Positions 2,380 to 23,170 of a stretch of DNA of 32,000 nt are shown here, in pieces. The position numbers and the translations under genes are program-made. How positions within the stretch are numbered: the first letter of the stretch is position 1; each line of letters begins with the position of its first letter. The notes under the pieces are model-generated. The model was not told where the DNA came from. It did no database searches and saw only the letters and a list, made by a program, of their open reading frames with translations. This DNA comes from Desulfobacterales bacterium (GTDB lineage Bacteria; Desulfobacterota; Desulfobacteria; Desulfobacterales; JAHEIW01). The stretch spans positions 1 through 32,000 of the forward strand of contig JASFNW010000017.1 in assembly GCA_050116835.1 (NCBI GenBank). Direction: 5' to 3'.

Positions 2380-2389
2380 AAAAAAAAAT

Positions 2390-2761: not shown

Positions 2762-2826
2762 ATTGCCTCCTCCAGGCTATGATAAATTATTTTGATAAGA
2801 TATTTTAGACATATCCTTTATTAATC

Positions 2827-2856: not shown

Positions 2857-2911
2857 TTTTTTATTTTTTTAAACGGGATTATGTTTTTATCTTTTAATCC
2901 AATCTTCTGGC

Positions 2912-4446: not shown

Positions 4447-4635
4447 TTTCACGCCTTTCATCATAGTCACAAATTTTTGGTGAAATGATCGAGGATCCTC
4501 ATTTTTGACCAGACCATTTCAAACGCTGCCGATTCATGGGCACGGAAAGTTAAAGTCTCCCGTCTTCAAAAAATTTTAAAACAATTACAGACAGCTAAAA
4601 TATTGATGGCCCTGGATTGTGCCCATTTTTATGCC
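4447..4635. repeat. dispersed ~190-bp element, copy X1
   Basis: It aligns with 7485-7673 in the same orientation. Shared blocks are AAATTTTTGGTGAAATGATCGAGG (identical 24-mer, 4471-4494), GCTGCCGATTCATGGGCACGG, CTTCAAAA.AATTT and ATTGTGCCC. Confidence 0.65.
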
Positions 4636-4640
4636 TATTC

Positions 4641-4678
4641 AAACAAAAAAAAGCACCTACGAAAAATTTCGTAAGTGC
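4641..4678 (-). terminator. rho-independent terminator (minus strand)
   Basis: The minus-strand RNA forms GCACUUACGAAA/UUUCGUAGGUGC (one G-U pair) followed by UUUUUUUUGUUUG. It lies immediately 3' of the tRNA-Phe relic. Confidence 0.6.
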
Positions 4679-4687
4679 CTGAAATCA

Positions 4688-4720
4688 TGGTGCCAAGGGA
4701 CAGAATTGGTACGGCTGGCA
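4688..4720 (-). other. decayed relic of the tRNA-Phe 3' end (candidate old att remnant)
   Basis: TGGTGCCAAGGGACAGAAT matches 18 of 19 nt of the 3' end of the intact tRNA-Phe at 23016 (TGGTGCCGAGGGACAGAAT), in the same orientation. The similarity then degrades. Confidence 0.5.
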
Positions 4721-4788
4721 CTATGTCTTTTGTAAGTTCCTGATAATGTTTGATTTATGGGACCTAAGGGCAACTTTATGTTCCCCTT

Positions 4789-4831
4789 TTGGATACAATT
4801 TGGATACAGCTTAGCAGGAATTATTGGATAC
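4789..4831 (+). repeat. three direct TTGGATAC repeats
   Basis: TTGGATAC occurs at 4789, 4800 and 4824. These lie between the stop of the 4856..5221 gene and the tRNA relic. Confidence 0.5.
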
Positions 4832-4855
4832 TGTCGAGGTCAATCAAAGAACCTT

Positions 4856-5221
4856 CTAATACCCTTTCACCCAATCCTCAGCTAATTTCAGATCAGTAAA
4901 CACCCTGATTTCAAACGGCAGACTTTCGGCAGCGCTAATAAAAAATTCTGCCATTGCCTTTTGAATGCCTGTCGCGACAACTAATGCAGTTTTAGTCCGG
5001 CTTGCATTCTCAGGGTAATTTTCCTCAATAAAGTCTCTTAACTTGAACAATTCAATATAGTTTAAATTTACCGGCCCGTCATGAAACACCCAGATGTCAT
5101 TCTTCTCAGGAAATTCATCCAATTTTAGCTCTGTTGCGATACCTTCCCAAATCTCCCAGTATTCAACCTCGCTCGGCTCGACTAGAATGTAGTCCTCTTT
5201 GACTGTTATCTTTGGCTTCAT
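4856..5221 (-). CDS. hypothetical protein, possibly SpoIIAA/STAS-like fold
   Basis: It is a clean 121-aa ORF. The pattern ...TKTALVVATG...LPFEIRVFTDLKLAEDWV resembles STAS/SpoIIAA-like domains. The functional call is weak. Confidence 0.55.
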   Translation of the reverse strand: MKPKITVKEDYILVEPSEVEYWEIWEGIATELKLDEFPEKNDIWVFHDGPVNLNYIELFKLRDFIEENYPENASRTKTALVVATGIQKAMAEFFISAAESLPFEIRVFTDLKLAEDWVKGY

Positions 5222-5466
5222 TTTCGGGATGGTACGAGTTGAAGCAGCGTTATTTAGGAATGGTTCTCATTAAGGTTTATCTTACCATCCTGTTGGAAGT
5301 ATGGTCAAGAAGTCTTTATCATCCTATGGTCCCTCGACGAGTCCACACAAGAAAAATCCATGCCACCAGCCGACTGACGCGAGGAATGTTAGATCTGTCG
5401 TTTACTTTTGCTACTCTCAGGATTGGATTAAAAAGTGAAAATAGTGTCTTTGAAAAAAATCTAAAC

Positions 5467-5604
5467 TTAACTATCTCTACTGTGCTCCTGCCTCCCGGCG
5501 GTATTGCCATCTGAATCCTTCTTGAAATAAAGCCAGATCAGGACGCCAATGAAAGCAAATACCCAAATGTTAAGAAGGGTGTCGATCACATTTTTTAAGG
5601 ACAT
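5467..5604 (-). CDS. candidate 45-aa single-TM small protein translationally coupled to the BCCT transporter
   Basis: The sequence is MSLKNVIDTLLNIWVFAFIGVLIWLYFKKDSDGNTAGRQEHSRDS. Its ATG overlaps the BCCT stop (TGATG), and GAGGTGG lies 4-6 nt upstream. It is below the track length cut-off. Confidence 0.4.
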   Translation of the reverse strand: MSLKNVIDTLLNIWVFAFIGVLIWLYFKKDSDGNTAGRQEHSRDS

Positions 5605-7088
5605 CAAACCACCTCTGACTTAAGGGCTTTTAACAAACACATCACAATCAACAGGACAATAAAAATAAAGGGTAACGCTGCCAAGCCAATGATACTCTTC
5701 ACAGCGTCGATACTATTCGCAAGGATCATTACCAGCCCGAGGGCTCCCAGGATGACGCCCCATATAAGCTTGGTCTTTGTCGGCGGGTTCAGGTCTCCAC
5801 CGCTGGCAAACATTGAAAGTACGAAGGAAGCGCTGACCACACTTGTCACCACAAAAAGAAAAGCTGCCAGAACGGTGGCAACGCTTGTCAGGGTGCTCAA
5901 CGGCAGATACCTGAGTACAAAAAATGTTACGTCATTAATATTTGTCTTCACCACCTCCAGAATCGCCGCATCGAGCCTCAGCACCCCAAAGAACCCGGCG
6001 CTGCCAAAAACCCCGAACCAGAAAATCGAAAAAAAAGTGGGCACCAGCATGACGCCCAAAAGATATTCCCGGATGGTACGGCCCTTTGATATGCGTGCAA
6101 TAAAAACACCGACAAAAGGGGCCCAGGCAAACCACCAGACCATGAAGGTCAGCGTCCAGGATTGAAACCAGGAGGTGACTTCTTCATCAAAAAAGGTATA
6201 GGTTTTAAAACCCTGCGGAATCACCCGGAAAAAGTAGTCGCCGATTGATCCGACAATTCCACTCATCATAAAGAAGGTCGGACCGGTAAGAAGCACGAAG
6301 ATCATGAGCCCGCCCGCAATAGCCATCGCTGTATTGGAAAGCGTTGCCATACCTTTGCTCAGATCCACCATCAAGGGTAGGATGTAAGCCAGGCAGAGCA
6401 CCGCAAAGATTACCACAGCGAGCCTGTGACCGGAATCAGAAAGGCCGAAAATTGACTCGACGCCGCTTTGAATCTGAAATACCCCCATGGCGATGGATCC
6501 ACCGATGCCGATGGCGATGGCATAGATGGCCAACAGGTCACTCAACCAGCCGACGCTTCTTGTCCAGAGCCGCTGACCAAAAACGGCTTTCATCGGAGCG
6601 CTCACCAGGGTGGGAAAACCTCTGCGAAAGCTGAAATAGGCCATAACCAGACCCGTGACCGCATAGATGGCCCAGGCATGAAGCCCCCAGTGAAAGTTTG
6701 TAATAAAGAGTGCATGTTCTGCAGCACGAAAATCGTCGGTGTAGTCACGAATAACCTTAAAGTGAGAAAGGGGTTCAGCCGTTCCCCAGAAAAGCAACCC
6801 CACGCCCATCCCGGCTGCAAAAAGCATGGTCAACCAGCTGACCGTGGAAAATTCGGGCTCATCATCGTCCTTGCCGAGTTTGATCTTGCCATAGCGGGAA
6901 AAGGCCAACCAGATACTCAGGATCAAAAGCAGGCTTACCGAAAGCATGATAAACCAACTGCGGCTGGTAAAGAGGAAACCTGTCAGCATTGCGGAAAATC
7001 CGGCCAATCCCGCTGTGTCAATAATACCCCACAACGCGACAAGGCCGGTCAAAGCGAGCGCGATAAGCAGCAATGGATTTTTAAACAT
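5604..7088 (-). CDS. BCCT-family (betaine/carnitine/choline) transporter
   Basis: It has 12-TM-like hydrophobicity. The family signature WTLTFMVWWFAWAPFVGVFIARISKGRTIREY is present. A good SD (AAGGAGAGG) precedes the ATG. Confidence 0.9.
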   Translation of the reverse strand: MFKNPLLLIALALTGLVALWGIIDTAGLAGFSAMLTGFLFTSRSWFIMLSVSLLLILSIWLAFSRYGKIKLGKDDDEPEFSTVSWLTMLFAAGMGVGLLFWGTAEPLSHFKVIRDYTDDFRAAEHALFITNFHWGLHAWAIYAVTGLVMAYFSFRRGFPTLVSAPMKAVFGQRLWTRSVGWLSDLLAIYAIAIGIGGSIAMGVFQIQSGVESIFGLSDSGHRLAVVIFAVLCLAYILPLMVDLSKGMATLSNTAMAIAGGLMIFVLLTGPTFFMMSGIVGSIGDYFFRVIPQGFKTYTFFDEEVTSWFQSWTLTFMVWWFAWAPFVGVFIARISKGRTIREYLLGVMLVPTFFSIFWFGVFGSAGFFGVLRLDAAILEVVKTNINDVTFFVLRYLPLSTLTSVATVLAAFLFVVTSVVSASFVLSMFASGGDLNPPTKTKLIWGVILGALGLVMILANSIDAVKSIIGLAALPFIFIVLLIVMCLLKALKSEVV

Positions 7089-7484
7089 TGCCTCTCCTTT
7101 ACGTCAACCCTTGATATATTAAGCGTATTGCAGGTTCGCACGATTTACAGACACCATATACTTATCACAACATCAATCTGCACTGCAACACACTTCCGGT
7201 TATTTGACGACGTCTTTTGATCGCTTCAGATGCCCAATGTTCATCCCGTAATTGCTATGATCCACGACCTTCTCTTTCGGTATTTTTGGCTGGAATCTTT
7301 TGATGTATCTACCTTTTGTCTGTCATTCGAGAGCATAACCAAGAAACATCGAAATGCGGTGGTCAAGTATATCACGTTCGGCTAGGGTGGTGTAATTTCG
7401 GTCGGTTAAGGAGTGCGAGCATTCCTATCCGGTCAAACCTGAATCCTACCAAAAGAGCACCTATTCAATTTTTTATTTTAGTTC

Positions 7485-7673
7485 TTTTCACCTTCCAGCA
7501 TCATCATAAATTTTTGGTGAAATGATCGAGGCTTCTCAGAAGTTACCAGACAAGTTTAAGTGCTGCCGCATTCATGGGCACGGGGATTGAAAATTTCCCT
7601 GCCTTCAAAAGAATTTCGTCTTCTATTATTAGGTTATACTGACACCCAATGTGAATTGTGCCCGCCTTTGGAC
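7485..7673. repeat. dispersed ~190-bp element, copy X2
   Basis: See X1. The identical 24-mer is at 7508-7531, and GCTGCCGCATTCATGGGCACGG is at 7562-7583. It lies in an 825-bp ORF-poor gap (7089-7913). Confidence 0.65.
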
Positions 7674-7913
7674 CCTTTTAAATATGATTTTCAACCCTTT
7701 TCCCGATTTTTTTCTAAGTTTTAGCAGATTTTGAAAATTTTTCTCGCACGAATTCTCACACAACTGAAACCCATTTTCACACATTTTTGCTTAAATCCAC
7801 CCTACCCTTATTTTGCCGTTTATACATTACCACCCATATTTGTAAAAGTTTAGTGAATTTACGGTTCAGGATGCCGACATCGGATCCAACAACATTGAAG
7901 GTAAAATTTTCGG

Positions 7914-9023
7914 CTATTCCCAATTGTTTTGAATGGCATAATCAATAAGATCATTTACCATGGGTTCAGTGATTGGCGGAATTTTAAAATGAGGTAATGC
8001 GCTGTCCGTATGGGCACGATCGAAAACAGGGTTGTTTGCCAGGTGATACCGGAGGATTTGCATCTGACGCCAGACCATTCCTTCTATTTTGTTGCGCGGT
8101 TTGATAGGGACATCAGGCCCTGCAAGCTTAATTCCATTCAAATTAAATTTTCGGTGAATGAGGTCGAGGGTCCATTTATGCTGCGGAGGGTTGGGATGGG
8201 TGAGGTGAAATATTTTTCTGTGATGATCGGGATTTTCTATAATGCGAACAACTGCTCCGGCGACGTAATCCACCGGTATAATATTGGCGCTGCCATCTGG
8301 ATCTGCAGGCACCTGAATTGAAAGGTGATGTCGCTCTGAAAGTGGCGCATCACGGAGTAGTCTGTCAAGCAAATGAGCTGCTTTAAACAAAATATACCAA
8401 CCGGTAAATGATGTGCACCGTGCGGTTTGAGAATCGCCGATAATAATGCTCGGGCGGAAGATGGTTGCCTTTTCCATCCAGATTTGTTCGGCCTCCCATT
8501 TGCTTTCTTCATATACGGTGACAAAATCCGGATGTGGTTGATTTTGTTCATAAATTTTGCTGCCCCGCACCAGTCCGCAGACATAAGCGCTGCTGATCAG
8601 ATGAAAACTGAATGGCCTACGCTGCGCCAGTCCCATCAAAGCTCGGGCACTACCCAGGTTGGTTTTAAGCGGCTCCCCGTTTTCATCCAAGTGCAGCCGT
8701 GTGGAAGCCGCATTATGAAGTACAGTGTCCACTTCAGAGAGGTCCTTGTGCTGTTTACACCAAAGTTCCCATTCAGCGTCAATATCCAGCACATCGCCTT
8801 TGCACCAGAACAAACTGTTCACTGCTTTCGGGAGTCCGATAGTACTCAGAAAGCGGAGGGTTGAAAGTTTGCGTGGCTCTTTTCTGTATAGCGCCCAGAC
8901 CTTGTGGCCTCTTTGCAATAGATTAGCGAGAATATATTCGCCTAAAAATCCAGTGGCTCCGGTCAAAAATACGTTCATGGATTCATTCCAGATAGGTTCA
9001 TTGAAGCAAAGTAATCTTGACAA
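7914..9023 (-). CDS. SDR-family NAD(P)-dependent reductase, thioester-reductase / fatty-acyl-reductase-like
   Basis: It has MNVFLTGATGFLG (Rossmann fold), SSAYV...YEESK (S/YxxxK catalytic set) and a long C-terminal substrate domain. The probable true start is Met16 at 8978. It is divergent from the megasynthase gene. Confidence 0.8.
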   Translation of the reverse strand: MSRLLCFNEPIWNESMNVFLTGATGFLGEYILANLLQRGHKVWALYRKEPRKLSTLRFLSTIGLPKAVNSLFWCKGDVLDIDAEWELWCKQHKDLSEVDTVLHNAASTRLHLDENGEPLKTNLGSARALMGLAQRRPFSFHLISSAYVCGLVRGSKIYEQNQPHPDFVTVYEESKWEAEQIWMEKATIFRPSIIIGDSQTARCTSFTGWYILFKAAHLLDRLLRDAPLSERHHLSIQVPADPDGSANIIPVDYVAGAVVRIIENPDHHRKIFHLTHPNPPQHKWTLDLIHRKFNLNGIKLAGPDVPIKPRNKIEGMVWRQMQILRYHLANNPVFDRAHTDSALPHFKIPPITEPMVNDLIDYAIQNNWE

Positions 9024-9151
9024 AACATATGCTTAACCGTAAAAAAAAGTCATCTGTATCCCATCATTAGCTCCGAAACTTGACTCCGCAGGCCTTGTGC
9101 TTAAACCAAGACTGGAGTGAAAGATATTTGAATATTGTACTCGAATTATGA

Positions 9152-9182
9152 TTGACAATAAAAAACTTCCTTTTTTTATAAT
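9152..9182 (+). promoter_or_regulatory. candidate sigma-70 promoter of the megasynthase gene
   Basis: A perfect TTGACA (9152-9157) and a perfect TATAAT (9177-9182) are present, but with a long 19-bp spacer. The SD GAGGGAG lies 6 nt before the ATG at 9294. Confidence 0.4.
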
Positions 9183-9293
9183 CAAAAAAAACATTTAAGC
9201 AAGATAAGATAATTTGACCGAATCCGACCGTTCGACTCTGACTTATGAATAAAATCCCTCAAAAGGGCTTGGCAATTTAAAAGAGGGAGTCGC

Positions 9294-12200
9294 ATGAAAA
9301 CGGGTTTTAAGCAAACATTTCTTGGGTATTTATGGCCACCTTCTTCGTTCTCACCAACTGTGGCTGACCTCTGCCAGATTGCAAATACGCGCATCATTAT
9401 CGATTTATGTTCAATATCCCTTGAAGATGCAGCAATACTTCTTGCCAGAATTGAAGGCGCCCTAAATAATTTCGATTATAAAATGTCTCCCGCTCAACTA
9501 TTTGATCAATCCTTTGCTAAATGGCTGAGACAATCCGCTGTTGGACGCTTATGGGTCGAAGTCCATCCGTTCGATGGCGTGAATGTCCCCGAAGCCTGCC
9601 TGCAGCAATTATGCACACTCATGCCCAGGTTTACAATTTACCCGATTTTGGGAGACATAAATCTTTTGATGCGGGTGCCTGACAAATTTCCTCAATTTAG
9701 AGCGCTGGTATTGAAAGGATCTGAAGCGTCCGGCTTTGTCAGCGCCGAAAGCACGCAAACACTCTATTTTACTGCCAGAGAAAAAACTCGGATGTCAGAG
9801 TCCCCACCCAGTCTATTTATCTGGGGAGGCATAGCAACTGCAGAGGCTGCGTCCGCTTTCTTTGCAACCGGCGCAAAAGGAATCGTTTTTGAAAGCCTTC
9901 ACTGGTTGACTGATGCAGTTAATCTCAACGATGGGCTGCCAGATAGGATTTCAAAACTTCACCCGGATCACACCGAACTTGTCGGCTTGAATCTTCAGGT
10001 TCCCTGCCGGCTATTTAATAAAGGAAATTCCAAGGCGGTGAAGCGGTTGCAAAGGTTTTCGAGGTCCATTTGCGGCGCTGAAGTTCGCAATGAGCAACGG
10101 CGATTCTTTGCTGACCACATCACCGGGAACAGCATTCAACCGCTGGAGAGCAGTTTCGGCCGGGATGAGCTCATTCCCTTAGGGGTGGAAGCCGGCTTTT
10201 CCAGCTCATTTATAAAGGTATATGGCTGTAATACGCACGTAGCTCTCGAGAAGTTCAGAGATGAAATCAATGCGCGATCTAAAGAAGCAGAACAGAAAAA
10301 ATTCTGTTTTGTCGATAGTCCCGTTGCCAGGGAAATGGGGACTCTATATCCATTTATCCAGGGAGCCATGACATGCATAACAGACGTTCCCGAATTTGCC
10401 AAAAAGGTAGCCGATGCCGGCGGCCTTCCCACAATAGCACTGGGCACAATGAGTCAGCAGATGATCCAAAAGGCCCTGAACAACCTACAAGCTATCATTG
10501 GAGATCGACCTTATGCAGTCAATGTTGTGTGTCTTGCTGAAAACCCTTTCCTGGATGAGCAACTGCAATGGATACTGAAAACCAAGCCGCGTTTTGCGGT
10601 AATTGCAGCCGGTGATCCGATTTACGCCCGTGAAATGTTATCGGCCGGCATACAAGTTATCTATATCGCACCCAACGCTGAGCTGCTCAAACTCGCTTTC
10701 AAAGACGGCGTTCGTATGGTCATCTGCGAAGGTAATGAAGCCGGAGGCCATATCGGTGAATATACCACGTTGACCTTTGCTCAAATTTTACAGGATTTGA
10801 AAAGACGCGATAGGCATCTATTTAACGGCCGCAGATTAATTTTGGCCGGCGGTATTTGCAGCCGCGAAACCGCCTTTATGGCAGCCATGCTCGGCGCAGA
10901 TGCAATACAGATGGGAACTGCATATCTGGGCACCGAAGAAATCGTTACCACAGGAGCCCTCTCTAAGCTTTATCAGCGCATGATTATCTCAACTGGGCCC
11001 GGCGGTACCGTCATAAGCGGCGAGAGCGTCGGGCTGCGGGTAAGATCTTTGAAAACCGAAAAAATCGATGCCATTTGCTCGCTGGAAAGGGATTTCAATG
11101 CCGGTGTCGAAACAGAGGTCTCCTTTCGGGAAAAAATTGAAACACTGGGAGCGGGCAGTTTGCTGATTGCGGCCAGGTGTATGGATCCAGAAAAGGGGGA
11201 CTTTCTTGAAGAAGAGACCTGTCTGAAGCAGGGTCAGTTTATGAGCGGTGCATGTGCCGGCTCGATCCATAAGGTACAAACGATAAATAAGCTTCACCAG
11301 GATCTTGCCCAGGGTCCATGGCCGGACGACTTGCCGGTCTCAACATCATTATTCGAACATCACGATGAACAATATGCCCCGGGGAAAAAGGTAAAAAAAC
11401 AGGCAAACCAACCCAAAATTCAGCAGAAGGTGCCCCGGCGGCGGCGCTATGATCGTATTGCCGTCACCGGCATGAGCATTGTCAATTCACTCGGCAACAA
11501 TCCTCTTGAAGTCTGGGAGGCCAGCCAGACATTAAAGAGCGGTGTTGCAGAGGTGCCCCCTTCAAAATGGAACCATGCGCAATTTTATAATCCCAGACCG
11601 AGAACCCCCGAAAAAACCTACTGCAAGGTGGCCGCTTTCATGAACCTGGATATTTCCAGGAAGGAATTGGGAATCCCGCCCCAGGATTTCCGCACCATGA
11701 CAAATGCGACCAAAATCACCCTCTGGTTGGCAAAAAATGCGCTCGCAGATTCAAACATCTTGCAGTCCGACTTACCCCGTGAGCGTATCGGTGTCTTTAT
11801 TTCGCAAAATTCAGGGGAGGCCGCAGCTACGCTGCAGGATATTATTATCCGTGGCAGTACACGCCAACTTGTGTCTGCCATTAAACACACCATCCCGCTG
11901 AACTCAGATGCGGAACGAGCAATCACAGCGGCGATTACCTCCGGTCGTTTGGCCGTTGACGATACCACCCTCCTGGGACGTTTAAACTGCACCGCAGCAG
12001 GTTTTATCTGCAATACCTATGGCTTCCAGGGCCCCAGCTTTGCCGTCTCCGCTGCCTGTGCCACTTCGCTGGTCGCCCTTTTCAGTGCGTACCACATGAT
12101 CCGCAACGGAGTGCTGGACGCCGCTCTGGTCGGCGGCGCGGAGGAACTGTTGACCCCGATGCATTTTCTGGAATTTTCCGCCCTCGCTGCCCTTGCCGGC

Positions 12201-15200
12201 CTTTCGGGGGTCAGAAGACCTGCGGATCAGGTAAGCCGGCCTTTTGATGTCGGACGCGACGGAATGGTCCTTGGCGAAGGCGGCGGCATGATTGTTATCG
12301 AAAGAGAATCGACAGCGCGCAAGCGGCCTTGCGCCGTGCATGGTTTCATCACCTCGATGGGCGCCAGCAACAATCACCTGGGAATGGTCGAATCATCCCG
12401 TTTGACCCAGGAAATAGCCATTCGGGCTTCTTTTGACGATGCAGATTATGGGCCGGATGACGTCGATCTGATTGAATGCCACGCCACCTCAACCATTCAG
12501 GGTGACATTGAAGAGGTCAAAGCGCTGAGCGCACATTACCAAAGCGGTTCCGGTACCGTGCTGTCATCATTTAAATCCCAAATCGGCCATACTTTAGGAG
12601 CATCTGGAATCAACAGCCTCATCAGGGCTCTAATGGCTGCAAAATCAGGCATCTTCCCGCCAACCCTAAATTGCAACACCCCGGATCCGCAAGTCGGTCT
12701 GCTAGAAGCAGGATTTGCAGTTCATACCGTACCGGAAAAGTGGACAGTCCGTAATAGCGGCTATCGAAGATTTCAGGTGAATTCCTTCGGTTTCGGTGGT
12801 TCCAATTATGTGCTCCAAGTCGAGCAGCCGGTAGAAAGCCGCGACAATGTTCCGATTATGCAGCAGGCACAGCAGAAGGTTTTGATTAAACCCGGATTAG
12901 AAGTTTACCCTCCGCAAGGATTATCCTGCTATCGCATAAACATTGGAAATCAGCCTTACCGAATGGGAATTGCTGCCGAAAGCAAAGACGAAGTCCGGAC
13001 AATGATTAAAAATTTGACATCGGGGAAAATCGAAACGCGTTTATCTGCACGAAAAATTCGGTCTCTGGCCGGAAATGGCGTTTATCTCGGAGCAGAAGCC
13101 GGCGACACGCCACCCGTGGCTTTGGTATTCCCCGGGCAGGGGGCCCACTATGGAGGCATGGGATATGAGCTGTATCGGGATTTTCACGAAATTCGCAAAT
13201 ATATGGATCTCATGGCACAAATTGCAGATTATGATCTGTTGAAAGTACTCTTTCACCATCGCGAGGAGGATTTACAACATACCCGCTGGCAACAACCCGC
13301 CCTGTTTGTCCTGGAATATGCCATGGCTCAGTGTCTATCCTCATATGGCATCCGCCCCGCCGCTGTCGCGGGTCACAGTTTGGGAGAACTAACAGCTTTG
13401 TGCCTTGCGGGGGTTTTCACTGCGGAAGATGGATTTCGTATTGTCGACAAGCGCGCGGAATGCATGGCCAACGCCGGAAAACATCATAAAGATCCGGGTA
13501 TCATGGTGGCCACAAATGCACCTTTGGATCATATTGAAAATCAATGCCACCTATATGATGATATCTATATCACCAATATCAATTCGCCACAGCAGATCGT
13601 TTTTGGTGGTGCCAGCAAAACCTGTCGAGAATTAAGCCATGAATTGAAGAAAAACGGGTTTCGTTGCACAAAGCTGAATGTCGGCATGGCCTTCCATTCA
13701 CCATTGATGGCATGCATCCGTAAAGATCTGGAAAAGTTTATCTCCCACATCGAGTTTCATAAACCGCAGATACCCGTCATTTCAAACACCACGATGCGTC
13801 CGTATCCGGATGATCCGGATGAAATCCGCGGCATCCTGATGGCCCATCTGGAATCACCGGTTCATTGGATGCAAAACATCAAAGCGCTCCGGGACCGATT
13901 CAATATACGCTGTTTTGTAGAGGTTGGCCCTCGAGACATCCTATGTAATCTCATCACTGACACCCTACCCGATGCCCGATGCTTGCCAACCTGCCTGCCC
14001 ACAGTGGAAGCGTATTTATTTAAGACCGCGCTGGCACAACTATTCGCCGCCGGATTGCTGCCGGCCATTAAAGGCGCGGAAGGGTTCTCACTTATCGAAT
14101 CCAAACCGCCTCAGCAGCCTGCCGTAAATCATAAGATCACTGATCCGGCTTCGTTATCTAAACAGAAAACGCCACTTCAAAATTTATCTTTAATTGAAAG
14201 TATAATTCAGAGCCAGATTAACGCGTTTGTGATAGAAAGCTTCGGGCAATTTCTAAAACCCAGGATTCTCGGCATCATTCGTGATCGCGTTGATGCGAAC
14301 TTTACTGAGGCACAGCTGGATGAGGTCCTTGAGCAATCGAATTTTCAAAAGGCAGGATTGATGCCGGAATATCCTAGCCGGGATGAGGGACGTAAAGATA
14401 TATCGACGGATGCTGATGAGAGATCGTTATACAGTGACAATGGACAATCGGGCGATTTCATCGAATCTGTCATTCGAATTATTATGGAGGCCACCGGCTA
14501 CGATCGCGAAGAAATCGAACCCGAAATGAATTTACGTGAGGATCTATCCATACGCTCAAGCCGCCTTCCCGTCATTCTGGATGCCATTGAACAACAATAT
14601 GGGCAAATCGTAGATTTTCAGTCATTCGCGGAAGTCCAAACGGTAAAGGATTTGGCCGAACGTCTATCCGAAATACTTTCGAAAAAAAACGATAGATCTT
14701 CTGAAAGCCGGGTAGAACATTTGCGCGAGCAAAAACCGGTCTGTTCAGATAAACATATCGAATCAGGAGAAAAGACCGTTCCGATCAAGAGATTTCTTTT
14801 CAAAGAAATCCCCATTGCAAAAAACGAATACCGCCCTGTGCAGCTGGAACCATCAGAGAACATTGTCATCCTCTCGCAGAACCATGAGTCATTTTTAGCT
14901 TCCGAGGCGGCAACGATATTACGTCGGGATTACGGAGTTAGTCCGATTCAAATCCCATTTTTGGTACAGAAGAATTCGTCTGCCAGGGAAAATTACAACT
15001 TGTTGGCGGCTGAAGATCATCGGCCCTTTGCCGACCGTCTCAGGCAAACCGACGGGTTGGCGGGCATGGTGATTACCATGGATGATTTAATTCCAAAACA
15101 GCCTCTCGATGTTACTGACGCATCGGTGGTATGCCAGGGCTTTTTGGAAGCTGTGAAAGCATTTTTTAAATCTGCTTCAAAAAAGTTTTTCATTGTTATT

Positions 15201-17207: not shown

Positions 17208-17253
17208 AGAGTTCGCAAGAATCCATTGTAAGCCTACAATTGAATTTAACTCA

Positions 17254-18096
17254 ATGAATGTTGACTATCAAAGCAAAATTCAGGCAAGCGGGAGAGAATC
17301 ATCCGATCGAAAAGTTTTACACAAGGAATGTTCGATGTATCTAAAGCCTGTTCATATTCCTAAAAGCCGTAAAGCCCCTTTGGCTTCGAACCAAACCCCC
17401 ACCGGGTTTTCAAAAATCAATAAAAATATCATATTCGCTTCCTGTTTATGGGACAAACTTCAGACAGCAGCAGATGCCCGCAGACAGGCCAAAAACATGC
17501 TGATTGAATTATTGTTAAAGGAGGGCAGGCATATACTGCCGTGGGCTGATAGCGGACTGAAAAAACAGAGTGCCTCCAGGCATTCAGCATTCATTGTCGT
17601 CAGCAACCGATTCGGACAGCCGCTGTTGCGAATAAACGGTAGCAGGGGTCCTTCGCTTTCCTTTGCCCATATACCGGGCAGAACCTGTGCGGCAATGTCG
17701 CTTTGCAGCGACGATGTGGGCATTGATGTTGCCAGCAGTAAGGATTTTTTCGATGGCTATCCCCTTCAACGTGTTTTCCATCAGGATGAGTTTCAAGCCA
17801 CGATGAAATTATTTGGAAGGTATGAAAACGCAGCCGCCGCTTTGTGGTCCGTTAAGGAGGCAGCGGTTAAATCTCTGGGGTGCGGTTATCGTTTTTTTGC
17901 TCCCATCGACCTAAAAGTCAGGATTGATTTCGAATTTACCGGTGAAGATAAGATTTATGTGGTTTTTTCTGATTATGCAAGGCATCGAATCGGCTTGGCG
18001 AAAAAAAAAGTCCATCGTGTACACCTTTTTCGTCGCGGCACTCTTTTTTTGTCGGTAGCTTTGGCTGGCTCATCAAAAAAATGCAAATCCAAATAA
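17254..18096 (+). CDS. 4'-phosphopantetheinyl transferase (Sfp/PfaE-like)
   Basis: VGIDV and WSVKEAAVKSLG motifs are present. The likely start is Met28 at 17335, preceded by AAGGAA. The last 6-7 codons lie inside the 18073-18166 repeat. Confidence 0.8.
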   Translation: MNVDYQSKIQASGRESSDRKVLHKECSMYLKPVHIPKSRKAPLASNQTPTGFSKINKNIIFASCLWDKLQTAADARRQAKNMLIELLLKEGRHILPWADSGLKKQSASRHSAFIVVSNRFGQPLLRINGSRGPSLSFAHIPGRTCAAMSLCSDDVGIDVASSKDFFDGYPLQRVFHQDEFQATMKLFGRYENAAAALWSVKEAAVKSLGCGYRFFAPIDLKVRIDFEFTGEDKIYVVFSDYARHRIGLAKKKVHRVHLFRRGTLFLSVALAGSSKKCKSK

Positions 18097-18166
18097 AAAA
18101 GGAAGTTAGGCGAATCGCTGAACTTCCTTTTTTATGGTGCCGAGGGACAGAATCGAACTGCCGACA
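18073..18166. repeat. direct repeat, copy 1 (partner 21119-21210)
   Basis: The 86-nt core 18081-18166 matches 21125-21210 at 84 of 86 positions. It covers the PPTase 3' end, the terminator hairpin and the first 32 nt of the tRNA-Phe 3' fragment. Confidence 0.85.
18095..18133. terminator. bidirectional rho-independent terminator
   Basis: AAAAAAGGAAGTT-(13-nt loop)-AACTTCCTTTTTT has A/T runs on both sides. It lies directly after the PPTase stop. Confidence 0.75.
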
Positions 18167-18179
18167 CGGGGATTTTCAG
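18135..18179 (-). other. perfect 45-nt copy of the tRNA-Phe 3' half (anticodon loop to CCA); att-like remnant
   Basis: TGGTGCCGAGGGACAGAATCGAACTGCCGACACGGGGATTTTCAG is identical to 23016-23060 of the intact tRNA. Homology stops at the anticodon-loop boundary. Confidence 0.85.
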
Positions 18180-18328
18180 ACCAAATTTTTGAAAATTTAA
18201 AAAATACTGTGATTACAACCAGTTGATTCTAGTTCAATTTTTCGTTGTATTTTTGGTTTCGTTTGGAATTTTTTGGAAATATTTGACCTTGACGGGCACA
18301 ATTTGGGCACAGTCCTTAAATAAAAACC

Positions 18329-18472
18329 ATGCCGGAGAGTTTAAAGTTGAAAGATTACTCTACTCTGCCGGTTGTGTCCCCACAAGATCAATCGCAGATA
18401 TTAGGCATTTTAACTCGTAAAGACATTCTGGATGCCTATGATCACGCCGTGATAAAAAAAACCGTCATCTAA
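18329..18472 (+). pseudogene. orphan C-terminal fragment resembling a CBS domain
   Basis: The 47-aa ORF is MPESLKLKDYSTLPVVSPQDQSQILGILTRKDILDAYDHAVIKKTVI. The LPVV...GILTRKDIL pattern is typical of the end of a CBS domain. No upstream domain is present. Confidence 0.35.
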
Positions 18473-18499
18473 AAGAAGCGCCGGACGAAGCAATTTACT

Positions 18500-19840
18500 T
18501 TAATCGAGGCGTCGGATACGGGGACTCAGAAACAGGTAGTACAGTGTTATGAGCCCCAGCAGGCCTGCGGAGCCGCCCACAGCCAATTGGACGCCGACGC
18601 GATCGGCCAGGATGCTGACGAAGAAAACGCCTACCATCGTAATGCCCCAGTTCATCATGTACACGCTCATGACCCGCCCCTGATGAGATTCATCGGTGTT
18701 GGACAACAGCAAGGTGTTGCTCAATGCCAGCCGGCCGGCCTGGCCCAGGCCCATTGCGATAAAGATGAACACCGCCAGCAGGTAGGATCCGGTCGCGCTG
18801 AAGGCCACCAGGGAGACGGCCGCTAAAAGCAGGCTGAGCAGAAAGATCAGGCCGCGTTTGCGATTGCGCATGGAAGCCACAACCAGAGAGCCTACTAGAG
18901 CCCCCAGACCGGATACGCTGATCAAAAGCCCCTGCCGGGCGCTGGACTCTCCCAGGGCCAGAAGCAGGGAGCCGATCAGAGGCAGGGAGGTTAGTCGCCC
19001 AAAAACCGATACATCCACCAGCAAAATGTCCCGCGTAAACATTGGCAGCAAAAACAGGTAAGGCATGGAAAGAACCGTGGCCAGGAGTGTCAGCACCAGT
19101 AAAGCCAGCACGTCGGCATTATGCCGGATGTAGCGCAGCCCCTCGGTGAGATCCTGGATGGTGCTGCTTTCCCGAGGGCGATCCCTGCCGGTGCGGGGAA
19201 GCCGAACAGCGAACATAAAACCGACGGCGTACAGTGCGGTCATGATATAGTAAACGCTTTCGACGCCCCCGAAGGCAATTAAGAAACCGGCAAATGCCGG
19301 TGCTGCCAGACGGATGAAATTCATTGCCGCCGCGTTGAGCGCGATGGCGTTCATCAGGGTGTCTCTGCCGACCAGTTCATAAATGAGCGCCTGCCTGGCC
19401 GGCATCATCAGGGCCATAACCAACCCCTGAAAAAAAGCGGCCATAAAAAGATGAACCCAGGAAATGGCGCCCGCCGTAATGGAAATCGCAACCCCCATAG
19501 CCACCAGGGCCGAGGCGAGTTGACCGGCAACCAGAATGCTCTTTTTTCTGATGCGGTCCGCCAGAATGCCGCCGAACAGGGAAACGGTCAGCATGGGCAC
19601 TGCAGCGCCAAGCCCCACCGTCCCGAGCATGACGGCACTCCCGGTCAATTCGTACATATACCAGGATCGCGCCACCATCTGCATGTTCATGGCGGTTATC
19701 TGCATCAACAGCGCACCGAAAAATATCCGGTAGGCAGGCAATGTCAATGCGGCAAAAGTCTTCTGCCGATGCTGCCGATTATCCCGGCCCGATTCAGGGA
19801 GTGAAGCAGCCCTGGTAGGCCGCGCGGAACTCTTATTCAT
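18500..19840 (-). CDS. MFS transporter (EntS/MFS_3-like)
   Basis: It has 12-TM hydrophobicity and a GGILADRIRKKS loop motif. By eye it is visibly more GC-rich than its neighbours. Confidence 0.85.
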   Translation of the reverse strand: MNKSSARPTRAASLPESGRDNRQHRQKTFAALTLPAYRIFFGALLMQITAMNMQMVARSWYMYELTGSAVMLGTVGLGAAVPMLTVSLFGGILADRIRKKSILVAGQLASALVAMGVAISITAGAISWVHLFMAAFFQGLVMALMMPARQALIYELVGRDTLMNAIALNAAAMNFIRLAAPAFAGFLIAFGGVESVYYIMTALYAVGFMFAVRLPRTGRDRPRESSTIQDLTEGLRYIRHNADVLALLVLTLLATVLSMPYLFLLPMFTRDILLVDVSVFGRLTSLPLIGSLLLALGESSARQGLLISVSGLGALVGSLVVASMRNRKRGLIFLLSLLLAAVSLVAFSATGSYLLAVFIFIAMGLGQAGRLALSNTLLLSNTDESHQGRVMSVYMMNWGITMVGVFFVSILADRVGVQLAVGGSAGLLGLITLYYLFLSPRIRRLD

Positions 19841-19979
19841 CTCGGAAATATTTCCTTGCCGGATTCATGGGAAATGTTCGGTCTCTCTATAAAACGGGAC
19901 AAGGCGGGCCCGCTCTATGCACAATTTTTTCCTCTAAATTCACCCCTGTCACCCTGCCCTTCACAAAAATCTTACCGAC

Positions 19980-20972
19980 TCAGGGCTTGAAACCTTCGAC
20001 CAGGGAAAACATGCCCTTGGTCTGTATCAAATTGATCCGTCTGAATCCCACCGCTGTCAGGCCTTCTTTGATTTCATCAAAAGTGTAGGTGCGGCCCCCT
20101 TCCGTGCCGGCCAGCATGTTCACCGCAAAAAGAGCGCCTTGCAGCGGCTGGGTGCGATCCGCCGACATGACATGATCGCGAATCACAATCCGACCCCCCG
20201 CGTTCAGGGAGCGGTATACTTTGCCGTACAGAGCTTCGTTTTGCTCAGAACTGCTTTGGTGGATGATGGCCGATAATAGGGCCAGGTCATGTCCGGGAGG
20301 CAATTCGTCCTTGTAAAAATCTCCGGCCACCAACTCGACACGGTCGAGCATATTGGCGGATTGCACGCGATCATGAGCTATTTCGATGACCGGCGGCAGG
20401 TCGAACAAAGTCCCCCTCATTTCGGGTTTTGCGCTGAGCATTGCCAGGGTGTAAGTTCCGGATCCGCCGCCCACGTCCAGCAGCCGGCGAGCCTTTCCCG
20501 GATTGATAGCAGCCACAACCTCCGGCGCGGCTCTGGAAGCGACCACGTGCATGGCACCGATAAAGGCTTTGCAGTTGCCCTCGGCCAAGGCGCCTTTCGT
20601 TTTAAGTCTCGGCGTGGTCTTGCCCAGCACAATGTCCGTTATTTGAGACCAGTTTTGCCACACCGAAGCCATGTGCAGAACCATGGGCAGAATGGAATCG
20701 GACGCGGTAGCCGACAGGAGGGAAGCACCCGACGGCGCAACCTGGTACCGTCTGTCTTTTTTCTCCAAAAAACCAAGGGCACTTAAGGCGTCCAGAAGGA
20801 TCTCTATCCCGCGAATCTCGGTCTTGGTTGTGGCTGCAATTTCCTCCGCCGTCATGGGCTCTTGGGAAAGTAAGGTGAAAAGATCCAGTTCTGCGCCGCT
20901 GAGCAGTATCCGACTGGCCATAAAACCGCGGGCCAGTTCAACGATTGATTCTTCCGTGATCTTTGCGCTCAT
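19980..20972 (-). CDS. class I SAM-dependent O-methyltransferase with an N-terminal winged-helix dimerisation domain
   Basis: The SAM motif LLDVGGGSGTYT is present. The overall layout resembles the Methyltransf_2 (plant/bacterial OMT) family. A tandem AGGAGG SD precedes the ATG. Confidence 0.8.
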   Translation of the reverse strand: MSAKITEESIVELARGFMASRILLSGAELDLFTLLSQEPMTAEEIAATTKTEIRGIEILLDALSALGFLEKKDRRYQVAPSGASLLSATASDSILPMVLHMASVWQNWSQITDIVLGKTTPRLKTKGALAEGNCKAFIGAMHVVASRAAPEVVAAINPGKARRLLDVGGGSGTYTLAMLSAKPEMRGTLFDLPPVIEIAHDRVQSANMLDRVELVAGDFYKDELPPGHDLALLSAIIHQSSSEQNEALYGKVYRSLNAGGRIVIRDHVMSADRTQPLQGALFAVNMLAGTEGGRTYTFDEIKEGLTAVGFRRINLIQTKGMFSLVEGFKP

Positions 20973-21118
20973 TTTAATCCTCCTTTAATTCCTCCTTCGC
21001 CACGCTGTTGCGACAGGCCTTGCAATCGGTCCAAGCCAAAGAAAAATCCATCTGTCATCCCTGTATCGTCTTTGTTTTACTAACCTACTAAAAACATTTG
21101 CACATGTATTTATCATAT

Positions 21119-21210
21119 TCAAAAATGCAAATCCAAATAAAAAAGGAAGCTAGGCGAATCGCTGAACTTCCTTTTTTATGGTGCCGCGGGACAGAATCGA
21201 ACTGCCGACA
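21119..21210. repeat. direct repeat, copy 2 (includes terminator hairpin 21139-21177 and a 32-nt tRNA-Phe 3' fragment at 21179-21210 with 1 mismatch)
   Basis: See 18073-18166. The tRNA part TGGTGCCGcGGGACAGAATCGAACTGCCGACA ends at the variable-loop region. Confidence 0.85.
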
Positions 21211-21292
21211 GCCCATTAATGTGCCTTTACATCCGTGAACCCGGTCGCGTCGTTTTTTTCTACCCTCCGCAGATGGGCCCTCATTTGGCGAA

Positions 21293-22630
21293 TTAAGGCT
21301 TATCGATGATCTCTATCTGTTTAGGACTATTAAGAACTATTTCAGGCCTCCCCCTGAATTTTTTAATTTTTCCTTTTACACGGACAAATTTGTTCAGGTA
21401 GAATTTTTCAGGTTTTTCCGGAAACCGATGAAAAACATTGTCGAATATAACAAGACTACAAAAACGGGCCCAATTATTGTGAAAGTTTAAAAAACAGGCT
21501 TTCCCGGAATTGTGGGTTCGGACAATCCTACCTTCAACAGACATATATTTTCCGATATAATTCTCAGCCAGATCCCATGGAATTATATCTTCACCTGTGG
21601 CCCTGACTTTATAAATTGTCAAAAATGACCTGGCGATCTTCTTTTGCTCTACAGAATTTATGGATCTTTCTGGAATTAATCGGTATTGACTTTTTAATAA
21701 AATATTCCTCAACGCTTCCTCATTGTCCGTGTTGATCAACGCGGAAAGGCTTTTTAATTTCGCACCAAGCTTCCCGGGTAATACACGCGGTAACGCATAG
21801 TTTTTATGTATGATTCCCCATCTATGGTATGCCATTGCGATGACAAATATATCACTCCGATCATTGCGTGTGATCAGTTTATCTTTATATCGCAGTTGTT
21901 TTAGTTTGGCCTGAAGCTCTCTTGGACTGAATTCATAAATCATGGAATAAAGCTGTTTGAGACGGTTTTCTATATCACGGTAATGTACCGGTTTTAAAAT
22001 CCAATTTCCGAATGCTATTTTCCATCTGTCTGCTGATAATCTTGTGAGTTGCAATAGTGGCTGTTTTTGCTTCAGAATCCATCGAACTTCAGGAAATCCA
22101 TCGTCTTTCCACAACCCGATTCTCCTTTTTTTCGCCTCCTGTTCCCATGCCAAAAACTGGGTCTTTCTGCGCTCATCCAATGGATATTTTGTATAGGCAA
22201 TTGCATAGCCGTTTTTAATCAGTTCTTCCTGCAAAAAGGTGCCGTCTTCAAGGTAAACGTAACCCAACACACGCCCATAATTTCCACGCTTGTCTGAATC
22301 ATAAGGATCGTATTCCACACGAACTTTTTTGCCCAGACAGATTTCCTCTGTAAAAGCACCGGCTTCCTTGGACATGAATTGAACTGGCAATTTGGGATGA
22401 TTCTTTTCGGGTGTATCAACCCCGATAAATCGCACGGTCCCCAGACCTTCCAACGTCAATGTGTCTCCGTCGGCAACAGATATGCACCTGTGATATTCTC
22501 TGTCTAATCCGAGGTTTTTAAGTAACTTGTCTGTAACCGGAGCTGGAATATCATTGGCTGAGGAATCAGAAAATAGAAGTACGAGCGACAATATGAGTGG
22601 AAATAAAGAAAAGGATATAAATCTGTGCAT
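21293..22630 (-). CDS. secreted thermonuclease (SNase)-domain protein with a C-terminal OB-fold-like domain
   Basis: A signal peptide (MHRFISFSLFPLILSLVLLFSDSSA) is present. SNase motifs are GDTLTL, VRFIGVDTPE and YGRVLGYVY...EELIKNGYA. The C-terminus (YMSVEGRIV...FVRVKGKIKKFRGRPEI) is OB-fold-like. The gene is visibly AT-rich. Confidence 0.8.
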   Translation of the reverse strand: MHRFISFSLFPLILSLVLLFSDSSANDIPAPVTDKLLKNLGLDREYHRCISVADGDTLTLEGLGTVRFIGVDTPEKNHPKLPVQFMSKEAGAFTEEICLGKKVRVEYDPYDSDKRGNYGRVLGYVYLEDGTFLQEELIKNGYAIAYTKYPLDERRKTQFLAWEQEAKKRRIGLWKDDGFPEVRWILKQKQPLLQLTRLSADRWKIAFGNWILKPVHYRDIENRLKQLYSMIYEFSPRELQAKLKQLRYKDKLITRNDRSDIFVIAMAYHRWGIIHKNYALPRVLPGKLGAKLKSLSALINTDNEEALRNILLKSQYRLIPERSINSVEQKKIARSFLTIYKVRATGEDIIPWDLAENYIGKYMSVEGRIVRTHNSGKACFLNFHNNWARFCSLVIFDNVFHRFPEKPEKFYLNKFVRVKGKIKKFRGRPEIVLNSPKQIEIIDKP

Positions 22631-23015
22631 TGAAGGATCTTAAACCGCCTTCGGCGGTCCAATATGCCTGAGGCTGCAAGCTGTCGACATTAGAATTTTC
22701 AGTTAGTAAATGCCGGGATCATTTAATATTATTTGGGTTTAAAATTATATTTAACCCGGCAATTTTTTCTTTGGGAATATTAATCTTGGCTTTACCCATA
22801 GTTGTTCGACCACTTGTTATTTCTATTAAGATATCTTAAAAAATAGTAAATTGAAAAATTCTTGCAAATTATCATGTAATCCTAATGTGTTATCGTACAA
22901 TTGGCACATATGAATGTCAAGTTTAGGATATCTGCACCATAGAATTATCCACCTAGCGATTGAATGCAAGACCGTAAAAAAAGGATACCGGACTTTAGCC
23001 TGATACCCTTTTTAG

Positions 23016-23091
23016 TTGGTGCCGAGGGACAGAATCGAACTGCCGACACGGGGATTTTCAGTCCCCTGCTCTACCGACTGAGCTACCTCGG
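23016..23091 (-). tRNA. tRNA-Phe (anticodon GAA), CCA encoded
   Basis: The reverse complement is GCCGAGGTAGCTCAGTCGGTAGAGCAGGGGACTGAAAATCCCCGTGTCGGCAGTTCGATTCTGTCCCTCGGCACCA. It folds as a cloverleaf with anticodon loop CUGAAAA. Confidence 0.95.
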
Positions 23092-23170
23092 CTCACGGAA
23101 TCCCATTGATTTTTAAGCTTAAATTAGAATGAAAGCTCTATAAAATGCATCTTTCTTTGTCAAGATATTT

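Follow-up and report, generated by a model that had tools for sequence, protein, structure and literature searches.

A probable tandem array of integrative elements behind the tRNA-Phe gene of an uncultured wetland Desulfobacterales bacterium

Several kinds of tandem island arrays have been described. Among the islands found downstream of ssrA in Dehalococcoides, 15 lack an integration module and were interpreted as cis-mobilisable (McMurdie et al. 2011, PMC3146451). The cis-mobilisable elements (CIMEs) of the ICESt1 family in Streptococcus have lost their integrase and transfer genes and kept the attachment (att) sites attL and attR (Pavlovic 2004; PMC5704250). The tRNA islands collected by Islander fall into classes according to the sublocation of att, in the anticodon loop (site A) or in the T-stem/T-loop region (site J); an integrase is required for each island, and arrays of at least three were rare, with just 4 cases in a set of 3919 islands (Hudson et al. 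2015, PMC4383910). Here we describe an interval behind the tRNA-Phe gene of an uncultured Desulfobacterales lineage from wetlands. The window analysed, 32,000 nt of contig JASFNW010000017.1 (assembly GCA_050116835.1), comes from wetland metagenome samples, and an earlier note made from its letters alone had proposed serial islands at this gene. We conclude that the interval 4688–23016 is very probably a tandem array of integrative elements, inserted serially by tyrosine integrase at the 3′ part of tRNA-Phe. This reading is carried by displaced repeats of the tRNA 3′ end, conserved arms beside them, a synteny break at the tRNA gene, other contents and integrases at the same site in relatives, and a polyketide synthase (PKS) cassette shared with one relative, where it ends in an intact att site.

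The locus resembles the Dehalococcoides arrays in that a single small-RNA gene is followed downstream by several islands in tandem, with a direct repeat of its 3′ end at the boundary of each, in that additional conserved sequence adjoins the repeats, and in that the contents are strain-specific. It differs in its target (tRNA-Phe rather than tmRNA), in its repeats (fragments of 45, 32, and 19 nt rather than a 20-bp repeat), and in its recombinases (tyrosine integrases in relatives rather than the serine recombinase DsiB); it also differs in having conserved arms of 140–200 nt on both sides of the core and in that many units in relatives consist only of toxin-antitoxin pairs of 0.8–1.5 kb. As in CIMEs and streptococcal accretion, the units of the window keep att sites and are without recombination genes. 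CIMEs, however, were shown experimentally to be mobilised by a related integrative and conjugative element (ICE), whereas any present-day mobility of this array would be conjectural; unlike the CIME/ICE systems, neither the window nor the arrays of relatives had conjugation or mobilisation genes that we could see. With Islander islands (Williams 2002; PMC4383910) the locus shares a regenerated tDNA, a displaced 3′ fragment in direct orientation that starts at the anticodon loop or the T-stem/T-loop region, and a content that is absent from relatives or different in them; none of the units of the window would pass the Islander integrase filter, however, and because no integrase is present the array is not an Islander-type island in the strict sense. 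Chromosomal integron arrays are similar in being one-way series of small units, often with toxin-antitoxin or defence genes, that are bounded by recombination sites, carry no recombinase of their own, and are joined by new units at one end. Unlike an integron, this array has rsmE–tRNA-Phe at its head, with no intI or attI and no integrase within 9 kb upstream, and its boundaries are tRNA-identity cores with asymmetric lambda-like arms instead of folded attC palindromes; since intI/attI and attC are lacking, it is not an integron. Tandem accretion at a tRNA gene is of a known kind; here it is unusually tidy, clade-wide, and cassette-like.

Displaced copies of the tRNA-Phe 3′ end and their flanking arms

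The intact tRNA-Phe(GAA) gene was the only tRNA detected in the window by ARAGORN and Rfam, and it lies 78 nt downstream of rsmE; the earlier note had the gene and strand right, with coordinates (23016–23091) one position too low. BLAST of the 76-nt gene against the window gave three displaced copies of its 3′ end, called R1, R2, and R3 (Table 1), all on the strand of the gene. The two longer copies had been read from the letters with the same coordinates and mismatch counts, and the common orientation had been seen as well. For the distal copy, previously drawn as a decaying repeat at 4688–4720, the 18 of 19 matches at 4688–4706 stood and the tail at 4707–4720 did not: past position 58 a position-by-position comparison gave matches at 4 of 13 positions, which is the chance level, and R3 is therefore described as a T-loop break-point and no longer as a degrading copy. 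The terminal 19-mer ATTCTGTCCCTCGGCACCA, allowing up to two mismatches, occurred at only four places in the window, all on the minus strand, and had no match in 100 shuffles, so that none is expected by chance. R1, R2, and R3 begin at positions 45, 32, and 58, each a canonical crossover sublocation in the anticodon loop or the T-stem/T-loop, and the break-point of R2 is that of most relatives. The intact gene is the integration target, on the attL side of the array. A variant tRNA-Phe fragment, in which the 5′ strand of the T-stem is replaced by a 13–15-nt palindrome (GCGCCTCAGGCGC), occurs in several organisms; it was seen at 189–245 of contig L092 and, at window position 4706, in Logan contigs of the metagenome runs labelled X1, X5, and X7.

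Table 1. Coordinates of the tRNA-Phe gene, its displaced copies, the adjoining att-like features, and the cassettes in the window
Feature	Position	Strand	Description
tRNA-Phe(GAA), intact	23017–23092	minus	ARAGORN; Rfam tRNA 70.4 bits
T1, hairpin terminator directly after intact tRNA	22975–23013	minus	stem GGGTATC..GGTATCC; −15 kcal/mol, z −3.4
Cassette 1	21211–23016	minus	single gene, SNase + OB-fold nuclease 21293–22630 (Pfam SNase 7.6e-27), AT-rich
R1	21179–21210	minus	tRNA-Phe positions 45–76, 31/32; identity begins in variable-loop/T-stem region
T2, hairpin terminator + tail, after R1	21121–21178	minus	−18.6 kcal/mol, z −5.0
Cassette 2 cargo	18323–21120	minus	O-methyltransferase 19980–20972, MFS transporter 18500–19840 (Pfam), GC-rich
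Arm A, 143 nt, immediately 5′ of R2	18180–18322	minus	starts TGTGCCC-N4-TGTGCCC, ends ..ATTTTCAAAAATTTGGT
R2	18135–18179	minus	tRNA-Phe positions 32–76 (anticodon loop to CCA), 45/45
T2′, hairpin terminator after R2	18077–18134	minus	tail overlaps last codons of convergent PPTase gene
Cassette 3	7678–18089	both	FAR-like gene 7914–9023 (minus), synthase 9294–17207 (plus), PPTase 17254–18096 (plus); Pfam
Arm B, distal part (78 nt)	7688–7765	minus	TGTGTGAGAA-type tandem repeats; homology to L040, L043, L047, L059, L092
X2, X-block relic	7491–7687	minus	starts inside block; marks head of BCCT unit
Cassette 4 cargo	4840–7490	minus	BCCT transporter 5604–7088 (Pfam BCCT 1.2e-147), 121-aa ORF 4856–5221
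P arm of R3 site (putative)	4707–4839	minus	three GTATCCAA repeats: 4789–4796, 4800–4807, 4824–4831
R3	4688–4706	minus	tRNA-Phe positions 58–76, 18/19; T-loop-type break-point
T3, hairpin terminator after R3	4640–4687	minus	GGCACTTACGAAA..TCGTAGGTGC; −17.3 kcal/mol, z −6.6
X1, ~190-nt block after T3	4447–4639	minus	GGGCACA arm-type repeats (one decayed here), inverted GTGCCC, small conserved hairpin

All four copies are followed on their 3′ side by a hairpin and a T-run, as had been noticed before for the remnants; by folding, the hairpins reached −15 to −18.6 kcal/mol with z scores of −3.4 to −6.6 relative to shuffles. Hairpins of the GGATATC type, like T1, follow tRNA fragments in the relatives L050, L064, L071, L073, L077, and L079. 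Upstream of the core, arm A was more than 90% conserved at most columns in an alignment of 13 copies from different contigs; it stands 5′ of most 45-mer copies in relatives, and its motif was present in 17 of the 81 loci examined. Arm B belongs to a second family of such arms, with two copies of TGTGTGAGAA. R3 is preceded by yet another arm, whose three GTATCCAA words are the only ones in the window and lie 83–143 nt upstream of R3; this arm was 81% identical to positions 1214–1349 of L092, where it adjoins the 19-nt fragment of that contig. No conserved arm was found 5′ of R1. A reading of arm B as the 3′ end of a gene with its stop codon in the anticodon loop was rejected, since only 6–12 codons are open.

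On the other side of the core and hairpin lies a block that we call X. Alignment of 43 copies (L006 and L039–L079) showed two GGGCACA words with a spacing of about 12 nt, GTGCCC in inverted orientation some 100 nt beyond them, a TGnTAAAAT motif, and a small hairpin. Four of the eight GGGCACA words in the window fall in X1, X2, and arm A; X1 ends 18 nt before the cytochrome b gene. Other families of flanks have other words, again as two or three direct repeats of 7–10 nt after the hairpin (TTAGTCAACA in L004, TATCCCCA in L015, and GTTGCG in L036). The arm repeats are thus tandem words of 7–10 nt, about 11 nt apart, on both sides of the core. Tandem arm-type repeats that flank a core are the classical attP layout of lambda-type tyrosine integrases. 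By this layout, arms A and B and the arm of R3 would be the P arms, and X the P′ arm, of attP-like, integrase-binding sites. As the repeats of the window lie inside conserved arms of about 140–200 nt, each internal junction (P arm, core, P′ arm) looks like a complete attP, which is the product of tandem integration of elements having the same attP. Two IMG/VR scans for a free attP form, one with arm A and one with the junction of arm A and core, returned nothing.

The TGnTAAAAT motif of X is conserved, resembles an extended −10 element, and points into the cargo. It is followed by the GGGGGAnTTTnAnTCCCC hairpin, which is kept through paired changes in some copies (for example, GGAAA..TTCC in L065). 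The X block may therefore drive or regulate cassette expression in addition to its putative role as an att arm. Neither X nor the rest of the array matched an Rfam family at E ≤1.

The same site in relatives

When species-representative genomes were scanned with RsmE, 38 loci were obtained; all were in metagenome-assembled genomes (MAGs) of Desulfobacterales type, and the best was 78% identical. The adjacency of rsmE and tRNA-Phe was kept in about 30 Desulfobacterales loci and the order lepA-GGDEF-rhomboid-valS-rsmE-tRNA-Phe in about 25, and this order breaks exactly at the tRNA gene. Downstream of it, gene content differed between almost all pairs of genomes; none of the products encoded at window positions 1–22630 occurred downstream of tRNA-Phe in the RsmE-anchored loci, and several contigs of relatives stop at the tRNA, among them those of the closest relatives, L001 and L002 (valS 93%). 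Because the upstream order is conserved and the downstream content variable, the tRNA-Phe gene marks the edge of a hypervariable region. The displaced fragment was found there as well: L006 has a perfect 45-nt copy (positions 32–76) 4.7 kb downstream of the tRNA, L015 has a 45-nt copy at 9.6 kb, and L004 has two decayed fragments within 3.5 kb.

Integrases were found beside the same site. The L015 interval encodes, together with its 45-nt fragment and a DUF3987 primase-helicase, a 406-aa tyrosine integrase (PF00589, 4.5e-32); in L036 an intact integrase of 389 aa (7e-31) adjoins the tRNA; and in L004 a truncated integrase abuts it. In tblastn searches, matches to the relatives' integrases lay by the tRNA in L014, L028, and L029 and near a fragment in L052. 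Autonomous, integrase-bearing relatives of the array thus use the same att site (L015, L036, and L004, plus the stub in L092 described below). The comparison of synteny that the earlier note had called for therefore gave a break at the tRNA in about 25 loci with other cargo behind it, and this break, together with the shared 45-nt fragment and the integrases of relatives, upholds the central proposal of serial, integrase-type insertions at the 3′ end of tRNA-Phe.

No recombinase was found in the window. Its open reading frames (ORFs) had no match to PF00589 or any other recombinase family; between 4430 and 23170, profile searches with all ORFs of at least 40 aa gave no integrase, excisionase, or transposase match, the sole intergenic hit being a CBS-domain fragment; and tblastn of the window with five integrases of relatives gave only noise. 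The absence of such ORFs, already remarked upon from the letters, was thus confirmed. In L006 a 416-aa protein stands beside arm A, in the place of the L015 integrase, and was considered as a hidden recombinase; this was rejected, as it has no Pfam or PHROG match. It belongs to a very large family whose members, labelled TPR-like or "cytoplasmic protein", are found elsewhere in the setting of defence islands.

To extend the comparison beyond these genomes, JGI metagenome contigs were scanned for a pattern composed of the T3 hairpin stem and 28 nt of the tRNA end. Among the 41 contigs obtained, the hairpin followed an intact tRNA-Phe, with rsmE/valS upstream, in 17, and a fragment in 24, usually positions 32–76 at 100% identity; two or three copies, 0.8–5 kb apart, were present in 14 of the 41. 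Short units between copies held either a DUF4143 ATPase or a toxin-antitoxin pair, namely RHH with PIN, UPF0175 with DUF3368, a DUF6932 nucleotidyltransferase with a partner, or a MazE-like antitoxin with a partner. Longer units held an SNase, an ARP-associated restriction endonuclease, a trypsin-ankyrin protein, or a pair of proteins of 597 and 416 aa. The high copy number of arm A and core in metagenomes might also be expected of a dispersed repeat family (a tRNA-derived miniature inverted-repeat transposable element, or an element like a short interspersed nuclear element) that has nothing to do with integration at tRNA-Phe. We regard this as very improbable, because, at all loci examined that also hold an intact tRNA, every fragment is downstream of it and shares its orientation, because the cargo between copies differs each time, and because the other contexts tested of a recurrent 411-aa cargo protein (L081, L085, and L086) are without a fragment.

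The unassigned pair of about 597 and 416 aa was the commonest cargo directly behind tRNA-Phe, 73–97% identical across more than 100 clusters (L006 7642–11034; also L041, L044, L058, L072, L075, L076, L078, and L080). Elsewhere the 416-aa family occurs in defence-type islands, beside type I restriction-modification, AbiEii, SNF2, or Fic genes, and the pair is a candidate two-gene defence system.

The units of the array and their joins

By Pfam, the genes at 1–4429 encode a multihaem cytochrome c, a Rieske protein, and cytochrome b. These are followed, in order, by genes for a 121-aa ORF product, a BCCT transporter, a fatty-acyl-reductase (FAR)-like protein, a 2637-aa synthase, a phosphopantetheinyl transferase (PPTase), an MFS transporter, an O-methyltransferase (OMT), and an SNase + OB-fold nuclease, and then by tRNA-Phe; beyond it come rsmE, the gene for a 416-aa protein, valS, and genes for a rhomboid protein and a GGDEF response regulator, and lepA. 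The interval 4688–23016 comprises at least four cassettes: SNase, OMT+MFS, FAR-PKS-PPTase, and BCCT. The SNase unit (between tRNA and R1) and the OMT-MFS unit (between R1 and R2) have att sites on both sides, and the PKS and BCCT units share a junction from which the core has been deleted. The array at tRNA-Phe in L059 likewise includes an SNase gene. The CBS-domain fragment mentioned above (18320–18469, plus strand; 6.3e-6), which lies between arm A and the MFS gene, is an orphan C-terminal piece and represents gene debris at the cassette edge.

The separation of the PKS and BCCT units came from the L092 contig, which was 91% identical to the window at the nucleotide level over exactly 7678–18089. 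In the sense of the tRNA, the PKS cassette of L092 ends in arm B and an intact 45-nt fragment, which are followed by an ORF of 87 aa that consists of a complete DUF6538 domain (2e-15). Since 6 of 6 full-length homologues tested are DUF6538 + Phage_integrase proteins of 460–565 aa, we take this ORF to be an integrase stub. Next in order are a small membrane-protein ORF, a P arm with GTATCCA repeats, and a 19-nt fragment of the R3 type, and past it a HepT/MNT toxin-antitoxin pair, arm A with a variant fragment, and a Phd-like antitoxin. The BCCT segment is absent from L092, where its slot is taken by the stub and the membrane-protein ORF. As L092 shares only 7678–18089 and ends there in an intact 45-nt fragment, BCCT and PKS are separate units; the earlier note, which had joined them in a count of up to three insertions, was right about the serial insertions and too low in their number. 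A second contig, L093, was 88.7% identical over 7865–18089 and carries, upstream of the end of the PPTase gene, an arm A that is truncated. By comparison with these two contigs the PKS cluster is a discrete unit with att ends, from which the BCCT segment is separate, and the R3 site belongs to an element family that did encode an integrase.

In the window, the boundary between these two units is a relic without a tRNA fragment (7491–7765). A decayed fragment was considered there and rejected, as nothing but X-block and distal arm-B sequence aligns there and the core is gone. The distal 78 nt of arm B are fused to the interior of X2, which argues that proximal arm B, core, hairpin, and the start of X were deleted.

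The synthase is a single protein with the domain order ER(NMO)-KS-AT-ACP-KR-DH, encoded next to the reductase and the PPTase. It has two close homologues (90% and 88%); the rest, at ≤56%, are from other orders, the closest being in Desulfomonile, Thermodesulfovibrionales, and Syntrophorhabdales. Its distribution is patchy and suggests horizontal spread.

Base composition differs between the segments much as had been noticed by eye. The core of the window has a GC content of 48.9%; the SNase unit has 39.4%, with GC at third codon positions (GC3) of 0.39 and a tetranucleotide correlation of r = 0.61 to the core, and the OMT/MFS unit has 53.5%, with GC3 of 0.64–0.70. These two units, which are those closest to the tRNA, look foreign by composition, and under a model of serial insertion they would be the youngest. 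The PKS unit (GC 47.3%, r = 0.91 to the core) looks ameliorated or derived from a close donor.

Across eight wetland metagenomes, depth at the tRNA and at 18079–18436 was 10–60 times that of the surroundings, and breaks in Logan contigs fall at 18136, 21157–21180, and 23045. A chimera, in which the window had been misassembled at repeats (tRNA-Phe, arm A) common to many organisms of the sample, therefore had to be excluded. Independent JGI assemblies of other samples span every junction with identical proteins: L088/L091 run from lepA through rsmE and tRNA to SNase, OMT, and MFS and so cover tRNA-SNase-R1-OMT; L087 has SNase-OMT-MFS-PPT-PKS and covers SNase-R1-OMT-MFS-R2-PPT-PKS; and L084 has BCCT-orf121-cyt b-Rieske-cyt c and covers BCCT-R3-cyt b. 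In addition, the depths of the unique segments track that of the core in four runs (about 11–15, 6–10, 7–13, and 7–11). A chimera is thus extremely unlikely, and we concluded that the joins of the array are real and not an artefact of assembly. The array is apparently fixed in the sampled population, with no alternative neighbourhood of the OMT or SNase protein on record.

This lack of population polymorphism across samples would also be expected if part or all of the array had been built in another genome and had arrived en bloc, by accretion followed by cis-mobilisation through the outer att sites. Such transfer of tandem composites is documented for CIME-ICE pairs (PMC5704250), and the arm-A remnant just upstream of the same PKS cassette in L093 raises the possibility that this junction predates the lineage of the window. 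We nevertheless consider en-bloc acquisition unlikely: the PKS cassette and the R3 site are all that L092 has in common with the window, the sequence between and beyond them being different, the units differ sharply in GC (39%, 53%, and 47%), and the lengths of their cores differ as well (32, 45, and 19 nt).

The distal limit of the array is less sharp than the tRNA end. X1 is most like the X blocks that directly follow an intact tRNA in L051 and L074, and R3-T3-X1 is therefore the last recognisable att-like site. Cytochrome b has many homologues at 80–88% identity. MAG Ww513, to which L004 belongs, has the cyt b-Rieske-cyt c operon among unrelated neighbours on a different contig, and in one complete genome the operon adjoins the mur/fts cluster; no X block or tRNA fragment was found within 10 kb of the operon in either. 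X was absent upstream of cyt b in the relatives L082 and L083. Past the left end of the window, L084 had no further fragment over 5 kb, but a DUF4143 ATPase follows the operon. With no relative that places tRNA-Phe beside the cytochrome bc operon, the array has no defined distal limit; the operon may be the ancestral flank or an older cargo.

Accretion at tRNA-Phe and its alternatives

We propose that each incoming element would recombine with the intact tRNA-Phe and supply it with a new 3′ end and terminator hairpin, the former 3′ end and its flank being pushed distally at each insertion. Outward from the tRNA, the units would then be SNase, OMT + MFS, the FAR-PKS-PPTase lipid/polyketide cluster, and BCCT. 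At least two integrase specificities would be needed, one of an anticodon-loop type (45-nt R2) and one of a T-stem/T-loop type (32-nt R1 and 19-nt R3). The units may have lost their integrases, or may never have had any; they would accordingly be decayed islands, or CIME-like cassettes that use an integrase encoded elsewhere. The PKS/BCCT junction would have lost its core through deletion. A search for excision joints in the assembled contigs of eight metagenome runs gave only joints that were repeat-induced or derived from relatives, with short sides, and none that pointed to a circle.

Several observations weigh against this proposal. The action of an integrase is deduced from relatives, since the window has no integrase, excisionase, or remnant of either. 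The PKS segment resembles the core in composition, as given above. No empty site of this species was found: the loci anchored on rsmE and on cyt b never join the two flanks, cyt b does not lie within 10 kb of tRNA-Phe in any relative, and the nearest MAG with long contigs has the operon on a separate contig, so that the earlier view of the cytochrome bc operon as the original neighbour is not supported. Finally, R1 and R2 share 58 nt more past the CCA end, giving a 90-nt block of 98% identity (18077–18166 versus 21121–21210) that has no counterpart in the flank of the intact tRNA gene. About 20 nt of this block overlap the 3′ end of the PPTase gene and reach PKS-cassette sequence that is also present in L092. 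Such identity between R1+T2 and R2+T2′ would not be expected from simple serial integration, and it hints at a step of duplication or conversion. Its origin must be one of three: the OMT-MFS unit came with a P′ flank copied from this junction, or there was a conversion, or there was a duplication.

The same block raises the question of whether homologous recombination or duplication across the 90 nt, without an integrase crossover in the tRNA, brought in the OMT+MFS unit and possibly further units. The direct repeat flanks exactly this unit, and its extension into sequence overlapping the PPTase 3′ end would fit such an event. On the other hand, arm A is complete at the distal end of the unit and the 45-nt core there is perfect, an architecture that dozens of relatives' cassettes share, and homologous recombination would still require a donor unit that already had these ends. 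We therefore judge this route improbable, and retain integration at the tRNA as the most probable origin of the array.

A broader proposal, which we put forward tentatively and regard as possible at best, is that Desulfobacterales have an integron-like cassette platform at tRNA-Phe, in which one unlinked tyrosine integrase, acting in trans, would carry out the insertion and excision of single-function units of 0.8–13 kb without a recombinase, and their exchange between species. The site would be about 390 bp long and would consist of the 143-nt P arm (TGTGCCC x2), the 45-nt tRNA core, the hairpin, and the P′ arm of about 190 nt (GGGCACA x2, promoter-like TGnTAAAAT). Its cargo would include toxin-antitoxin pairs, nucleases, defence-like genes, transporters, and the PKS cluster, and the OMT-MFS unit of the window, from T2 to arm A, would be one such cassette.

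Whichever integrase was responsible, one hotspot behind tRNA-Phe houses a nuclease, a methyltransferase/exporter pair, a 10-kb lipid/polyketide cluster, and an osmolyte transporter, and the PKS cluster would be transferable, given its att-site ends. Island finders that require an integrase, such as Islander, would miss the whole array. The conserved arm-core-arm junctions, present in dozens of contigs around units of toxin-antitoxin size, offer a clean system in which to ask whether tyrosine integrases that target tRNA genes can run a cassette economy in trans; such an integrase might also be of use for site-specific insertion in these bacteria, which are hard to engineer.

Three features outside the array were also observed. 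Within the cytochrome bc operon, between the cyt b and Rieske genes, a 90-aa ORF (2390–2662, minus strand) matches the C-terminal part of a PD-(D/E)XK nuclease (PDDEXK_3, 1.6e-24); in the relative L083, Rieske directly follows cyt b. The 416-aa protein encoded between rsmE and valS (24005–25255, plus strand) has no Pfam or PHROG match and was recognisable in the nearest relatives only (L001–L006, 48–79% identity), the gap between rsmE and valS being filled by something else in more distant ones. Upstream of valS lies a long GC-rich leader with several hairpins and no Rfam match; within it, a stretch of 35 nt (25395–25429) had a depth several-fold above that of its flanks in 4 metagenomes, and contigs break at this stretch, which is common to many organisms.

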